Shown piece after piece: positions 10,662 through 46,841 of a DNA stretch of 64,000 nt. This DNA is from a virus (taxonomy: Duplodnaviria; Caudoviricetes). Position 1 is the stretch's first letter; each line of letters begins with the position of its first letter. The notes under the pieces are model-generated. The model did not search any database. It was not told the origin of the DNA and worked only from the letters and a program-made list of their open reading frames with translations. A program made the position numbers and the translations under genes. The stretch lies in IMG/VR virus record IMGVR_UViG_3300045594_000116, positions 96,001 through 160,000 of that record, one strand, 5' to 3'.

Positions 10662-11087
10662 TTACATTGGGCATTTGCTACAATGGTAGCATCTCTCTAA
10701 CTTACTGTGATGCTCAGGCTGAGCTAAGTCATAAAGATTATCAAGGCACTCTTGGCATAACCCGCTGAATATCCAGTTAGTAGGTGACTCTATAAGTTTA
10801 CCACAAGCTTTACATGCAACTGGCAATACTTCTGCCTTTTGCATACGTTTGATACACGATTGGCAGAAATGAGCTTTCATCTCTTTAGGGTCAATGCAAT
10901 CTACTTCACCGCAGATGATGCATTTAAAGAAATGAAGTTTTGCGGTTTGAGGCATACCATCATACTTGCAATTTTCAAAGATACACCTACCTGCAATATC
11001 TTTATGCTTACAATCTGCTGTTGGATGCTTACACATCTCAAACTGGGGATACGGAGCAGCCCCAGTGTCTCCCTCCATCTTAGCCAT
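10662..11087 (-). CDS. Cys-rich multi-zinc-finger protein
   Basis: CIIC, CQSC, CKAC, CQEC and CYHC pairs plus further Cys residues in 141 aa. Confidence 0.65.
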   Translation of the reverse strand: MAKMEGDTGAAPYPQFEMCKHPTADCKHKDIAGRCIFENCKYDGMPQTAKLHFFKCIICGEVDCIDPKEMKAHFCQSCIKRMQKAEVLPVACKACGKLIESPTNWIFSGLCQECLDNLYDLAQPEHHSKLERCYHCSKCPM

Positions 11088-24814: not shown

Positions 24815-26497
24815 TTAGAATTTAGGCATTGAGAACTTATTCTCATCTGTTGGTAATGATAATGTAAGAGCATACAATGCATCGATACCTTCATTAGTAG
24901 TACACATTATATTCTTACCAGAAAGAGAAATGAAGTGCCGCTTAGAGTTAAGCTGGTCTTCAAGTTCTTTATTGGCTTCTGTACTATATACAGACTTACA
25001 TGAAACTTGGTCGCCATCATAATCCCCACCAATAGATCCAAGATAGATATTACTAATACCTAATGTATCAATAAACAAGTTGGTGGTATTACTATTGATC
25101 AATTCTTTTGTAATGTATGGATAGTTCTTATAGAACGTTCCATTCACTACCATTGGTTCTGTACGCTTGGTAGAATATACGTTTACTTTTGTAGGGAACT
25201 GGTTGAAGCAACTATCGATAGGATATCTGGTAACCAGAATCATCTTGTCCTTAGTTACTTCTTTAGCTGCCATAAACAAAAGATCACACCATGTAAGAAT
25301 ACGTTCCTGTAATGGGAATTTGTTTATGTCAGAGTCTTTTGCCGTAAACTCTTCTTCTGTACACTGATGACCTTTGAAAATCATATTCGTAAACTTAATA
25401 GTTTCTCCATGGTACTTGAATGGTTCTACTGGAACCTCTATAGGACGTAACCGCCCTGCATAGCCATGGATAAATCTATCGATTTCTTCTTTTAGCACTT
25501 CATCTGAAAATGAGATCAGCGGGTCTTTTACCTTAGCAGCAACAACTTCATTTCCATTTCTTGAGAATGGAACACTGCCCATATCAGAGAACTGATTCTG
25601 AAAGAAGTTTCTTAACCAGAATATGATATACGGAAAGAAGTTAGCACATACAGCCGCTAATGGAACAGCACTATGATCTACATCAACCATCATATCATCG
25701 ATATTCTCTACCTTCAGATTAGGAGCGGACAATACTAATCGGGCAGACATATCTGTTGTCTTACTAGTAGCAGCTCTATTGATGATACCTTGCTTACCGG
25801 TTATCTCACCTGTAATCCAATCAAAGATCGAAACCAGTATGTCCTGTATACGGGCAGCTACTGTCGTAGAAAGGCTAATTCCGTATTCAGCACTCTCCTC
25901 AAGTGACTTAGTTGCTACGATTAGAGATGTATAAAGCTTGTTTATATCTCCAACTCCAAGTCCATGATAAGCATCTTCTGCGCTGTTCACATCTCGATAG
26001 TATGCAGGAAGAATGATAAAATCTTTTATCCACATACGATCACCGAATCGCTTCAGGAACTTGATATTGTATTCTCTAGATTCAGCACCGGTGGATTTGA
26101 ACTTAAGAGAGTCATATACCTTCTTGAAGAATTTTATTCCGCATTCTCCATTTTCTTCATCTTCTACAAGTTCTCCACCTTTAACGACAAATTTCTTTGT
26201 TCCGTGAATACATGCAGAGATTTTTCCATCAAGCTTACAGAGAATCTTATAAAATAATGGAGACAAGAATGGAGTATTCCCAAGTGCTACATATGCAAAT
26301 GTATTAGAACGATCATACTGCGTAATACCAAAGATTTCATGAGAAAGCAAACCTTCTGGATTAGCCTGCATCCCACTACCATTCTTGCTAAAGATGATAG
26401 GAGATGTAACCTGCTGCAATTTGTTGACTTTAACAAAATGGTCAGTTCTGAGAGGCTTTACATTCAGATATCTATTCTTTTTTTCTTTCTTTATCAT
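24815..26497 (-). CDS. rpoC: RNA polymerase beta-prime N-terminal (catalytic) subunit, probably of the virion RNAP
   Basis: GLLSHEIFG, GKQGII..SKTTDMSARLV, TRYP and catalytic GGDYDGDQ. RBS AAAGGAG before ATG 26497. Late promoter AACA TCGAGG TA (26532-26521) supports virion RNAP. Confidence 0.85.
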   Translation of the reverse strand: MIKKEKKNRYLNVKPLRTDHFVKVNKLQQVTSPIIFSKNGSGMQANPEGLLSHEIFGITQYDRSNTFAYVALGNTPFLSPLFYKILCKLDGKISACIHGTKKFVVKGGELVEDEENGECGIKFFKKVYDSLKFKSTGAESREYNIKFLKRFGDRMWIKDFIILPAYYRDVNSAEDAYHGLGVGDINKLYTSLIVATKSLEESAEYGISLSTTVAARIQDILVSIFDWITGEITGKQGIINRAATSKTTDMSARLVLSAPNLKVENIDDMMVDVDHSAVPLAAVCANFFPYIIFWLRNFFQNQFSDMGSVPFSRNGNEVVAAKVKDPLISFSDEVLKEEIDRFIHGYAGRLRPIEVPVEPFKYHGETIKFTNMIFKGHQCTEEEFTAKDSDINKFPLQERILTWCDLLFMAAKEVTKDKMILVTRYPIDSCFNQFPTKVNVYSTKRTEPMVVNGTFYKNYPYITKELINSNTTNLFIDTLGISNIYLGSIGGDYDGDQVSCKSVYSTEANKELEDQLNSKRHFISLSGKNIMCTTNEGIDALYALTLSLPTDENKFSMPKF

Positions 26498-32366: not shown

Positions 32367-32399
32367 CCAAATTAAATTCAAATGCGATTAGCTTAAATA

Positions 32400-32411
32400 A
32401 ACAATATAGTA
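32400..32411 (+). promoter_or_regulatory. Late promoter of the major capsid gene
   Basis: AACA ATATAG TA. Confidence 0.75.
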
Positions 32412-32480
32412 AATATTTAGCCCAATCTCGGCTTGATATATTATATCTGAAAATAAGAAATTACTAAGGAGGAAATAAAC

Positions 32481-34463
32481 ATGTCTGTTGTAGGAACTAG
32501 AGAAAATAACAAAGACATTATGCGCGGCTATGAGCAGGACGCCATGGCCCCATTTGCCGAAGCATTCGTAAACGTTGCAAAAGCTGGTATTGATGAGGGG
32601 TGCAACTTCTTCGGAGATACGAGTGACTTTTTGCGTAATCGCTCCACTCGTGATGAGCTGAAGAAATTCTTCATGGAGCAGTCTTTCGATAAGGAAGATC
32701 CGCGTTTCTGCCAGGAAGGCAAAAATGCAAACCCGAACGCTGCTGCTAACATCAAAGAGCATATGGACGAGATGTCTGCACTGTTCGAGAACGATGTTGA
32801 GAAGATCATGACAGAGGCTTCGCCGCTGGGTGCTTTCAACAACGTTGTTGGTCTGGCACTGCCGATTCATAAGAATATTCTTATGAGTGCTGTGTTTGAT
32901 CAGATTCTGCCGAAATCGGTTGCTCAGAGCCCGAAATTCACGCTGTCCCTTGAGACTCGTGAAATGATCGACATTCACGGCAACCACATCGATATGTTCA
33001 TGGAGCAGAACAAGATGACTCCGGCCATCAACGAGTCTGTTCCGAACCAGGATGTTATCATCCCGATTCCGGAAATGAAATCCGTGAACATTCTGAAAGA
33101 TACGTTCAACCTCGTTGGTCAGAAATATCATCTGTCCATCAAATCGGCTGTAACGGGTATCATCGTTGAGTCCATGTGCAAAACTGGCGATACGTATTAT
33201 GATGCAACGACGAAGACGATGAAGCAGGTTACGGCAGCAGCTGATGAAGGTATGAAACCGGTTCTGTTTGAGTGCGGCGAGATTCAGTTCCTGCCGGGTT
33301 ATGGCGAGATCGATCGTCAGATCAACAAGACGATTGGCTTCACAATCACGAAGGCTGATGGAACGACTGTTCCGGTTACCGGCGTACTGGCTGGTGGCGC
33401 TTACAAGGATGATACGTTCTACTTCACGTTCACGCCATCCACGGCTGAAGCTAAAGTTTCGGCTATCCGCTTCCATGCTGTCGTAGACACGACGTCTGCA
33501 GCATTCCCGACGGTCCGCTTCGAATGGGCTGCGAAGACTGATATCTTCCAGATCCCAGAGCAGCCACACGTTACGGTTACGGTATCCCCGGAATCCGTAA
33601 AAGATATCCAGGCTTCGTACGATGTAAACCAGATCACGAAGCTCATGAGCATGATGCAGCTTGCACTTGTTCATTGGAAAGATGACAATATCCTTATGGA
33701 TCTTGATCACAGCTTCAAGACGATGCCGGCAAGCCAGAAGGTCACCGGTGCAATCGATTGGGCTCCACCTCTCCAGTTCCTCGGTACGCCGAAGCAGTGG
33801 AGAACGGAAATGGGCATGGACCAGCTCGACAAGTACGTTACTCGTATGCTTCAGGTTCTGAACGACGAGAACATGACGATCCTTGTTGTTGGTCGTCCGG
33901 AGATCATCCGCAACATTGTTCCGCAGGAATATACGTACCAGGCTCCGAGCAACATCGGTCCGGTGCAGCTTGACTACACTCGTACGGTCGTTTCGACTGA
34001 TAAGCGTGTGTACAACTTCGTATCCAGCCAGAAGATGCGTAATGATAACAACCTTATCCTTATGCTGATTCCGCGCAACACTATGCGTATTACGTACAAA
34101 CTGATCGATTATCAGCTGTATGTATCCAATGAAATCCGCGATACTGTTAACTACGAGCTCCCGGGCATGACCTGCTTCGAGCGCTGGTTGTTCCTCCAGT
34201 ATCAGCCTGTACAGGGGAGAATTCAGATCATGAACGTTATGGGTACTCGTGAGCAGATCGAGAACAACAACCCGGTTGCTGATCGTGCTATGCATGATGA
34301 TACGGCTAACTACAGCTCCTACGCTTCTAGCGTCAATGGCGTTGTTAAGACGAGCGATGGTTCCTTCATCGGTGTCGCAAAGACGGCTACGCCGGCTGCT
34401 GCACATGAGAACAAAGCTGTTGTCGGTAACCCGACTGGCTTTGCTGCTCCTGACCAGCATTAA
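32481..34463 (+). CDS. Major capsid protein precursor
   Basis: 660 aa, very strong codon bias, own late promoter and terminator (34486-34511), propeptide ending IMTE|A; resembles AR9-type capsid proteins from recall. Confidence 0.75.
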   Translation: MSVVGTRENNKDIMRGYEQDAMAPFAEAFVNVAKAGIDEGCNFFGDTSDFLRNRSTRDELKKFFMEQSFDKEDPRFCQEGKNANPNAAANIKEHMDEMSALFENDVEKIMTEASPLGAFNNVVGLALPIHKNILMSAVFDQILPKSVAQSPKFTLSLETREMIDIHGNHIDMFMEQNKMTPAINESVPNQDVIIPIPEMKSVNILKDTFNLVGQKYHLSIKSAVTGIIVESMCKTGDTYYDATTKTMKQVTAAADEGMKPVLFECGEIQFLPGYGEIDRQINKTIGFTITKADGTTVPVTGVLAGGAYKDDTFYFTFTPSTAEAKVSAIRFHAVVDTTSAAFPTVRFEWAAKTDIFQIPEQPHVTVTVSPESVKDIQASYDVNQITKLMSMMQLALVHWKDDNILMDLDHSFKTMPASQKVTGAIDWAPPLQFLGTPKQWRTEMGMDQLDKYVTRMLQVLNDENMTILVVGRPEIIRNIVPQEYTYQAPSNIGPVQLDYTRTVVSTDKRVYNFVSSQKMRNDNNLILMLIPRNTMRITYKLIDYQLYVSNEIRDTVNYELPGMTCFERWLFLQYQPVQGRIQIMNVMGTREQIENNNPVADRAMHDDTANYSSYASSVNGVVKTSDGSFIGVAKTATPAAAHENKAVVGNPTGFAAPDQH

Positions 34464-43366: not shown

Positions 43367-44611
43367 ATGGGTAGATTTATAAATACCACTTATAATAATA
43401 CAGTAAATTCACTAGTGACTGCAGCTAATGAAAAACTGCAGAATCCATTTACTACCTTCCCTGATGGGAAAGGACCTACAGAGGTAACGTTCTTTAATAT
43501 CAATAAAGATAAGAGTACCTTTGATAAAGCTACAGGAGATACGTACGAAGAGTACGGACCAGATTCTTCCTTATTCTATGATAAGATTGAGAAAGTTTTC
43601 TTATTCGGTCTTGCACATATCGAAATTGATATAGAGCAGGGTGAATTTGGTTCTGAATCTAATAAGGTTCAGGGAGAGTGCTATCTCCCGCCTAATACAT
43701 TCAAACCGTACCAGTCTAGTTATTTTTTGATCAATTATCTCAAAGGTAAGAGAATTCTCTTCCGTGTAGTCAATGTGAATAGAGATACACTGGACAACGG
43801 TGGCAACTTCTATAAGATTGATTACGAGGCTGATCTGGTTGGTGAAGCAGCCATAGCCCAAATTGAAAGATCTGTAGTTCGTAAATTTACGATGCTTGCC
43901 AACTTCATTGGTACTGAAACCAGATGTGTTATTCAGAATGATGAATACCAAACAATAGTTAAGATTCAGAATGCATGTGACGAACTTCGTAACTACTATC
44001 ATGATATGTTCTTCAAGCCAAAGGTTCAAACCTTTGTCTATAAGTATTCTGATAGAGATAAAGGGATTTATTTCTATGATCCGTTCATGATAGAATTCCT
44101 TACGAAGAATGGGATACTGTATGGATCTAATAAGTTTGAGTATATATCTCAGGCATGTGTATTGCCACAATCATTTACAATAGATTATAATAGATCTGTA
44201 TTTAGAATGATTGAGACTCAGAATGCTAATCAAGAGATCTATCGGGTTTATGCTACAAGAATATATGATCCGATGAGTTTAATGACTGTGCGACTTGAAG
44301 ACTACTATTCGATCTCTATACGTGATGAATCTGGAGAGCGTATTAGCGGTGTATTAGCAGATCCAATTGATTGCTTTGATACCGTATTTATAGATGCTTT
44401 ACAGGGTAATAAGATATTCGATGAAAATGATTTCAGATACTATATGAATATCACTCTTGATTCTTTCTATAATAGAGATATCACAGAACATCAAGTTGAT
44501 TCTATCTATAAGATAAACTTTGTTCCTTGCAAAGAGCTGTTCTACATGATACCTCTAACGATATTTTCCCTTGAAAGGTACGTTTACAGACGGCTTAAAA
44601 CTACGTCGTAA
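43367..44611 (+). CDS. Late virion structural protein
   Basis: Late promoter AACA TCGAAG TA (43341-43352) and RBS GAGGTG. Confidence 0.6.
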   Translation: MGRFINTTYNNTVNSLVTAANEKLQNPFTTFPDGKGPTEVTFFNINKDKSTFDKATGDTYEEYGPDSSLFYDKIEKVFLFGLAHIEIDIEQGEFGSESNKVQGECYLPPNTFKPYQSSYFLINYLKGKRILFRVVNVNRDTLDNGGNFYKIDYEADLVGEAAIAQIERSVVRKFTMLANFIGTETRCVIQNDEYQTIVKIQNACDELRNYYHDMFFKPKVQTFVYKYSDRDKGIYFYDPFMIEFLTKNGILYGSNKFEYISQACVLPQSFTIDYNRSVFRMIETQNANQEIYRVYATRIYDPMSLMTVRLEDYYSISIRDESGERISGVLADPIDCFDTVFIDALQGNKIFDENDFRYYMNITLDSFYNRDITEHQVDSIYKINFVPCKELFYMIPLTIFSLERYVYRRLKTTS

Positions 44612-44645
44612 ACATAAGAGTAAATTGCAAGGAAGGAGATATATC

Positions 44646-44978
44646 ATGACTAAACAGGTTGATGAATTTCTTTTGCGTGAAATGGAAAGTGAAGATGTAG
44701 CAGACACGATCCATTCATGTGTTGATGGTACTGATGAAATCATAGAAGCTATGATGGAAACAGAGAGCAAAAAAGAAGTTTCTGATAGGGTTTTCCCGGT
44801 AGCGGAAAAATACCAAGAGACTATAGATCCAGAAACTCTTCGTATAGCCGAGTCCTTATCCAAAGATGAGTATAGCTGCGAATGCGGTGAACTCGTTGGA
44901 GAGAAGAACGAAGGTTGTACATGTAAGAGTTGTGGCAAAAAAGTAACAAAGGGAGGAAAGAAACATGCATCCAATTGA
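44646..44978 (+). CDS. Small late protein ending in a beta-prime-like zinc-binding domain
   Basis: Late promoter 44611-44622; KDEYSCECGELVGEKNEGCTCKSCGKKVT. Confidence 0.65.
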   Translation: MTKQVDEFLLREMESEDVADTIHSCVDGTDEIIEAMMETESKKEVSDRVFPVAEKYQETIDPETLRIAESLSKDEYSCECGELVGEKNEGCTCKSCGKKVTKGGKKHASN

Positions 44979-45237
44979 TGAAGAGCTTATTGGAATCGGC
45001 GGAAGCGATATTATCGCTGAAGAAGCTTCTGGAGAGGCTGAAGACGTTGATCACATCATCGATGACGAGGAAGAAGAAGAGCAGGAAGCTGAGGATGAAC
45101 TCCTCGGCGATAGCGCACGCGATGATGAAGTTGATATTGTTGTAAACTCTGACCTCGAAGAGCATCCTGAAGAGGATAACGATGATGACGAGGCCAAAGA
45201 GATTACTATAAAAATTAAATTTGGAGGTAAAGACTAA
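44965..45237 (+). CDS. Small highly acidic protein
   Basis: RBS GGGAGG; Asp/Glu-rich. Confidence 0.65.
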   Translation: MHPIDEELIGIGGSDIIAEEASGEAEDVDHIIDDEEEEEQEAEDELLGDSARDDEVDIVVNSDLEEHPEEDNDDDEAKEITIKIKFGGKD

Positions 45238-45719
45238 TGGAAATCACGACAAAGAAAGTTAATATGTATGCAGCCAGCCCGACGACTGTCGGATTTGGTA
45301 TTCCTAGAGTTGGAAATCTGAGAGGCATTACTATGACGGTAGCTGACATTCGTCAGGCTCTGCGTAGTCATGCGCATATCGAAGAGATCATGGACGATGG
45401 CCGTCTGGTTCCGCTCGATTTCTCGAACTTTGACAAAGACAATTCTGTTGCCAGCGAACTGACGCAGGCAGCTCCGGTTGTAAGCATTGTTACTCCGCTT
45501 GGTGAGCAGACTCCGATCGATGTCGCTAAGAAAGCAGAAGCTGCTAAAGCTGCTGCAGAGGCTGCAAAACCTGAGACGACTGTAGAGGTTCATGAGCCGC
45601 CGGCTTGTGATCCGTTTGCCGATGTAGCTGCTGATGCTAAGAAAGCAGAAGCAACTGTTACAAAGGTAGAGGAAGAGAAGAAAGCTGACGACAAGACGGC
45701 TGATTCGAAGAAAAAATAA
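45237..45719 (+). CDS. Hypothetical late protein with Ala/Lys/Glu-rich tail
   Basis: RBS GGAGGT; TAATG coupling; terminator 45731-45757. Confidence 0.7.
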   Translation: MEITTKKVNMYAASPTTVGFGIPRVGNLRGITMTVADIRQALRSHAHIEEIMDDGRLVPLDFSNFDKDNSVASELTQAAPVVSIVTPLGEQTPIDVAKKAEAAKAAAEAAKPETTVEVHEPPACDPFADVAADAKKAEATVTKVEEEKKADDKTADSKKK

Positions 45720-45992: not shown

Positions 45993-46841
45993 GTGAATCC
46001 GTTAGCTTATATAATTTGTGAATCTACAGCTCAGGATGTAGAATTCAATATTGTAAATCAAAATAGAAACTTTGTAATTGCTGAGGGTATTCTCCAGGAA
46101 GCCGAAGGCGAAAATCGTAATCATCGCTGCTATGCTAGGGAAGATCTCTTCAAAGAGATTACCTCTCCGAGACAGCAGGAATTGGTTCAGAGCGGAAACT
46201 TCAAAGGAGAAGCAGGCCATCCAATGGATGTGAATCTTGCTCGTCAGCAGACTATTGATCCTACCCTTGTTCAGGTTTGGTATACTAAACTTTGGATGGA
46301 CGGCAACTTGGTTAAAGCCCATTTCAGAGGTACGAACAATGAACTTGGTCGTGGATTCAATGCAGACCTTCTGGATGGTCAGAAACCATCATTCTCTCTT
46401 CGCGCTCTTGGCAGAATTGAGAATCAGAAGGGTAAAGCGTATGTAAAAGGGCTTAAGATCGTTACATATGATCGTGTATACTATCCGTCTCATTCAAAAG
46501 CATACACTAGTAAGATCATCAGTGATGATGCTGAAAAGGTAATGGCGAATAGTGCTAAGTTTAGCACTCCTATTAGTGTCAAAGAAGCCGGCAATAATAT
46601 GGTGATGACAGAGAGTGGTATTCTTTCGCCAATTTGCTCTGAATCTGTTCGTAACTATCTTATCTCTGAATCTGCAAACATCGATTTCATTCGTAAGAAT
46701 TTTGATACCTTCTATGAGAGCATCAAACTTACGGAAGATGGAAACAGTGTTGCTTTGACGACTAAAGACTATGATACGATTCTTGTTCCGGTAGAGCGTC
46801 ATATCTCTAACGAAATTATGGAATTTTGCTCGAAATTATAA
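45993..46841 (+). CDS. Prohead protease, T4 gp21-like
   Basis: NRNHRCY, GEAGHP (His), FSLRALG (Ser), TYD.V..PS; late promoter AACA TACGAG TA (45959-45970). Confidence 0.85.
   Translation: MNPLAYIICESTAQDVEFNIVNQNRNFVIAEGILQEAEGENRNHRCYAREDLFKEITSPRQQELVQSGNFKGEAGHPMDVNLARQQTIDPTLVQVWYTKLWMDGNLVKAHFRGTNNELGRGFNADLLDGQKPSFSLRALGRIENQKGKAYVKGLKIVTYDRVYYPSHSKAYTSKIISDDAEKVMANSAKFSTPISVKEAGNNMVMTESGILSPICSESVRNYLISESANIDFIRKNFDTFYESIKLTEDGNSVALTTKDYDTILVPVERHISNEIMEFCSKL

Follow-up and report, generated by a model that had tools for sequence, protein, structure and literature searches.

A polymerase-type zinc ribbon at the C terminus of a small acidic head-operon protein in an AR9-related phage

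The last ~40 residues of a 110-aa acidic protein encoded in the head operon of an AR9-like jumbo phage are homologous to the zinc-binding domain (ZBD) of the RNA polymerase (RNAP) beta-prime subunit. The explanation we prefer, at a probability of about 0.6, is that an acidic head-core protein acquired a ZBD in a single capture and now uses it as a zinc knuckle that the protease releases. The beta-prime zinc ribbon is a known domain found here in a new setting; a targeted literature search returned no account of such a ribbon outside RNA polymerase and none of the family to which this small protein belongs. The initial annotation had described a stand-alone beta-prime ZBD. The homology to the beta-prime ZBD holds, but "stand-alone" is a loose term for a domain that forms the end of a longer protein.

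The phage genome is a single contig of 229.5 kb, ~91% complete, and the phage was found in sludge and wastewater runs; the phages that carry the 110-aa gene are uncultured. The window, which is the whole stretch of 64,000 nucleotides analysed, corresponds to positions 96001-160000 of the genome. The prohead protease and the virion beta-prime N subunit are nearest to those of the AR9-group jumbo phages of Bacillus, Listeria and Staphylococcus. The open reading frame at 44646-44978 and the ending first reported for it were confirmed. The relevant features, in window coordinates, are as follows.

24815-26497, minus strand: virion RNAP beta-prime N subunit without ZBD (phrog_2986, E 7e-79)
43367-44611, plus strand: virion structural gene, putatively for head-tail joining, upstream of the 110-aa gene (PF24214, phrog_3013)
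44611-44623, plus strand: AR9-type late promoter, AACA-N6-TA(A), with a similar element upstream of the orthologues
44633-44638, plus strand: ribosome-binding site
44646-44978, plus strand: 110-aa gene, acidic head-operon protein with a C-terminal Cys4 knuckle
44646-44852, plus strand: aa 1-69, an acidic leader with a net charge of -13, which ends near an FP motif
44844-44855, plus strand: candidate prohead-protease site I-x-E-S, aa 67-70 (I67-A68-E69-S70), with predicted cleavage after E69
44865-44948, plus strand: beta-prime-type zinc ribbon, aa 74-101, Cys78/80/93/96
44949-44978, plus strand: C-terminal 9 aa, overlapping the ribosome-binding site (44952-44956) and start codon (ATG, 44965) that serve the next gene
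44965-45237, plus strand: second hyper-acidic protein, 90 aa, 43% D+E
45237-45719, plus strand: 160-aa conserved neighbour without assigned function
45993-46841, plus strand: prohead protease, S77/T4 gp21-like (PF03420 E 4.8e-9, phrog_207)

The late promoter and the placement among the head genes agree with the earlier description of a late gene. The AACA-N6-TA element is the AR9 late consensus (PMC5312081), and an ACAT-N5-TA[AG] form occurs at most 60 nt upstream of 24 of the 184 genes (1.2 expected). RNA-library contigs from one study span the 110-aa gene, although assembled contigs say nothing about whether, from which strand or how strongly it is transcribed.

A search of the six frames of the genome with a profile built on 111 non-virion beta-prime ZBDs from phages gave the tail 30.8 bits (E 4.5e-8), behind only the phage's own non-virion subunit. 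Among 200,000 shuffles with fixed cysteines, none reached the score of the tail (shuffle p about 5e-6). Scored without the cysteines, the tail has 18.4 bits and falls under every true family member (leave-one-out minimum 29.5). The cysteines at positions 78, 80, 93 and 96 are spaced CxC-x12-CxxC, and the non-Cys core residues are matched beyond chance, indicating at the sequence level that the tail is a homologue of the beta-prime ZBD. The four conserved cysteines suggest that it binds zinc. All named phage matches among the GenBank matches listed are RNAP subunits. A Pfam search gave no match of the 110-aa protein to PF04997, and no Pfam, PHROG or NCBIfam family was found for it. The AlphaFold models are of low confidence (mean pLDDT 61-62; tail 47-67), and Foldseek searches with them returned nothing at E 0.001 or better. 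The top Foldseek matches are beta-prime chains (best E 0.14), bacterial RpoC chains are the commonest of the weak PDB matches, and every ESM Atlas match lies below 0.9.

The non-virion family is the closest resemblance of the tail, and the phage's own non-virion beta-prime N (genome 32228-33433, outside the window; phrog_2987) has a Cys4 ZBD. Both observations fit a tail that mimics this domain, competes for its partner and in this way modulates late transcription. However, such mimicry is very unlikely in view of a score under that of every family member, the loss of the spacing in four of the six lineages of the clade described below, and the low similarity to the phage's own ZBD (38% identity, 42/84 nt). 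At this nucleotide identity, a recent copy of the phage's own ZBD was rejected as the origin of the tail. The frame of this non-virion subunit (L023) stops at 401 aa, ahead of the catalytic motif, whereas many homologues have 500-540 aa; it is probably split by an intron.

The loop of the tail is acidic (charge -2) and its residues follow the phage non-virion pattern, whereas a basic loop, K-Y-K-R, is common to the bacterial ZBDs compared, which come from several phyla. The loop bears on a second proposal of the initial annotation, in which an injected peptide decoys host factors that bind the zinc domain of host RpoC. The host ZBD does offer a surface to which regulators bind, HK022 putRNA among them (PMC9378689), and bacterial RpoC chains predominate among the weak PDB matches noted above. 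However, the sequence matches to bacterial RpoC are weak (E >0.1) and come from Cys, Gly, Tyr and Val positions. In place of the basic loop that serves for binding (R77 and K79 in E. coli; PMC9378689) the tail has the acidic one, and it varies freely. A decoy of this kind is highly improbable.

Two further cysteine-rich proteins were observed in this genome. A 141-aa protein at window 10662-11087 (minus strand) has 16 cysteines in several CxxC pairs, and a 536-aa protein at genome 43970-45580 (minus strand) has a short four-Cys cluster at aa 364-371.

In the virion beta-prime N subunit, the IFG motif is followed directly by the FAY.AL strand and the Cys cluster is missing, confirming that the subunit lacks a ZBD. 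A ZBD-less junction of equal length is present in all ten aligned virion beta-prime N subunits (this phage and nine relatives), including those of tail-less phages. The absence of the ZBD is general among these subunits and not peculiar to this phage; thus, the tail fills no gap in the virion polymerase. Iyer et al. assigned the zinc ribbon to the non-virion enzymes only (PMC7824862), and the virion RNAPs of phiKZ, SPN3US and AR9 are listed with five subunits and no separate ZBD subunit (PMC7824862, PMC5694885, PMC7618050). The nine related genomes, eight of them >=90% complete, were scanned with the ZBD profile. Each has one real ZBD, in a frame of 413-543 aa, and this genome alone has two. 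The co-occurrence anticipated by the initial annotation is absent, since a second or free ZBD was found in 0/9 of these genomes, all of which carry the ZBD-less virion subunit. A second match in one of them (G006, E 0.0017) was dismissed because it has two cysteines and no start codon. The virion beta-prime N subunit was also modelled in complex with aa 70-110; with an uncertain partner fold and without the C-terminal piece of beta, the score was 0.00, which is evidence in neither direction.

The subunit comparison and the genome scan weigh on the proposal that the virion RNAP is complemented in trans, in this clade only, by the released ZBD binding to it in place of the missing domain. The genuine ZBD homology, the late promoters at both the tail gene and the virion subunit gene, the conserved cut site immediately ahead of the domain and the retention of a full-length ZBD in two lineages are consistent with it. 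However, the nine relatives manage with the same subunit and no free ZBD, the junction is no shorter or longer here than in tail-less phages, and the tail is reshaped or lost in the nearest relatives. The AR9 non-virion RNAP is functional without a ZBD (PMC7618050), and alignment to 7S00 also shows its absence there. A split virion RNAP subunit would be expected to keep its sequence and spacing in close relatives, and the tail does not. Complementation in trans is therefore very unlikely.

Interruptions of the virion beta-prime N gene were observed in other phages. In the near-identical phage L024, a 376-nt insertion (L024:2980-3355) falls within its catalytic D-x-D-G-D motif. The copy in the window does not have it, and the gene is broken at the same position in L035 and L136. 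The insertion has no match in Rfam and is probably an intron.

Comparison across the phage group showed that the first ~65 aa are the broadly conserved portion of the 110-aa protein. Sixteen syntenic outgroup lineages have an acidic peptide of 48-70 aa that stops shortly past the FP motif and has no Cys cluster. Longer, tailed versions were found by profile searches and are syntenic as far as the contigs extend. In a tree of the protease and the upstream structural protein, with one row per distinct lineage and near-identical loci omitted, the tail-bearing lineages form a single clade (UFBoot 95) among giant phages from sludge and gut; L046 was placed on 34 residues only. The sister of this clade (UFBoot 100) has a Y-x-E-S site and nine further residues with no Cys. 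Four cysteines are present in five of the six clade lineages, with the full ZBD spacing in only two. The tail is CxC-x12-CxxC in this species and in P0142/P0164, CxC-x10-CxxC in P0140, CxC-x9-CxxC in the P0141 group, CxxC-x8-CxxC in P0017 and Cys-free in P0139. The two closest relatives, whose neighbouring genes are about 80% identical, have either a CxxC-x8-CxxC tail or no Cys. The varied spacing indicates that the ligands are retained while the loop and the surface drift. Within the clade, the ZBD profile matches only the two 12-residue forms (32.0 and 33.3 bits), which also match phrog_2987.

The full-length copies occur on both sub-branches of the tail clade, and their tails have diverged as much as their leaders (pN 0.44 and 0.42, respectively). 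Thus, a single old capture followed by shortening and loss would be the simplest history of the tail, with independent captures as an alternative. A recent, species-specific capture was considered and dropped, since tails occur in distant lineages.

Within this species, the 110-aa gene is under purifying selection, with a pS of 0.27 and a pN of 0.013-0.026 in the tail, on small counts (5 synonymous and 1-2 non-synonymous changes). The four cysteines are invariant in at least 15 members of the species cluster. The last residues of the protein are conserved because they overlap the ribosome-binding site and start of the next gene. These data bear on the possibility that the peptide is degraded during head maturation and that its zinc ribbon arose by chance or persists as a near-neutral relic. 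Its absence from most lineages and its loss in L040 would be expected in that case, and fragments of T4 core proteins exit the capsid (PMC5694885). However, the cysteines persist in most clade lineages despite indels and throughout the sampled species cluster, pN is far below pS, and a chance origin is excluded by the shuffles and by two lineages matching one profile. A relic or chance ribbon is unlikely.

The candidate site at aa 67-70, reported initially as protease-like, is conserved: I-x-E followed by S or G is kept in 6/6 clade lineages, with I67 and E69 invariant. The residue after hydrophobic-x-E is S, G or A at 52 of the 146 occurrences of this motif in head-cluster proteins (36%) and at 188 of the 1118 occurrences elsewhere (17%); the p value of 5e-7 is optimistic because the gene set was picked after the ranking was known. 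The conserved Glu at P1 fits this head-protein motif, which was itself derived from sequence alone. [quoted passage not shown] The products of cleavage after E69 would be the leader (charge -13) and a peptide of 41 aa with a charge of +2.

Cysteine knuckles and other variations were also observed on the neighbouring acidic proteins. In L044 (487-837) and L127 (4735-5085), the second acidic ORF ends in a CxC-x9-CxxC tail that resembles the first-ORF tail of the same phage, which suggests a local duplication of the knuckle. Hyper-acidic proteins of up to 60% D+E in L008 (3950-4381) and L014 (3600-4868) have an embedded CxxC-x3-PCxC knuckle that is unrelated to the ZBD. In L021 (2669-4471) and L022 (2724-4469), one acidic protein of ~580-600 aa replaces both small acidic ORFs at the same locus. 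Cys4 modules of differing origin come and go on both acidic proteins, pointing to selection for zinc binding as such. This repeated acquisition of Cys4 knuckles by acidic head-operon proteins hints at a role of zinc in head assembly. A 690-aa open frame at window 32388-34460 (minus strand) lies antisense to the major capsid gene and is probably a shadow of codon bias.

Since most relatives are tail-less and the tail has been remodelled or has disappeared in close ones, it is probably a reused zinc-binding tag and not a missing polymerase part. Under the preferred reading of a captured knuckle on a head-core protein, the 110-aa gene would have been lengthened at its 3' end in the clade ancestor, by a short stretch with an I-x-E site and then by a zinc ribbon copied from the beta-prime N gene of a phage non-virion RNAP. 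The acidic leader would enter the prohead core, and cleavage by the protease after E69 would release a zinc knuckle of ~4.4 kDa whose end is rich in lysine. This knuckle may bind zinc in a generic role during head assembly or within the head, where it could cross-link core proteins, contact DNA, or hold or carry zinc; it would be dispensable and exchangeable with other Cys4 knuckles. We infer cleavage, zinc binding and packaging of the 110-aa protein, which would then work in the manner of the T4 core proteins, or of internal proteins that lose a leader by cleavage, and not as an RNAP subunit. The full ZBD pattern has been held in two lineages over a long distance, beyond the needs of a generic knuckle, although the residues kept in both may simply be the fold core. 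If this reading is correct, the tail is a clear example of a polymerase domain that was captured and reused, with stages of its decay seen in sister lineages. It is quite unlikely that the protease-released, packaged ribbon binds an RNA polymerase, either the ZBD-less virion enzyme or a factor that partners the non-virion or the host ZBD, and changes its activity; in that case a polymerase domain would have become a trans-acting factor.

In T4, genes 67 and 68 lie directly upstream of gene 21, and gp67 is acidic. Searches of Pfam, PHROG and NCBIfam showed no homology of the 110-aa protein to T4 gp67, gp68 or the internal proteins, and neither AR9 nor LPJP1 has such acidic genes next to the protease. 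Thus, the T4 parallel is an analogy, in which "T4 gp67-like" denotes a mode of working and not a family. The 110-aa protein resembles T4 gp67, gp68 and the leader-cleaved internal proteins (PMC5694885) as a small late protein paired with a gp21-type, Glu-cutting protease, with cleavage predicted here; unlike them, it has a predicted zinc knuckle, and its virion location is a prediction. Compared with the bacterial RpoC N-terminal ZBD, which is part of PF04997, the tail has the same Cys spacing, with weak sequence and fold matches, an acidic instead of a basic loop and no PF04997 match. The ZBD of the phiKZ-like non-virion beta-prime N subunits (phiKZ gp55, PDB 7OGP; phrog_2987) is closer, with the same CxC-x12-CxxC spacing and shared Y, G, L, G, G and V core positions. 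Unlike that domain, the tail lies outside an RNAP subunit, in a small acidic late protein that it terminates and in which a candidate protease site precedes it; it scores lower than all members of the family, and its spacing decays in sister lineages. The 24815-26497 subunit, in comparison with the virion RNAPs of phiKZ, SPN3US and AR9, is an ordinary member.
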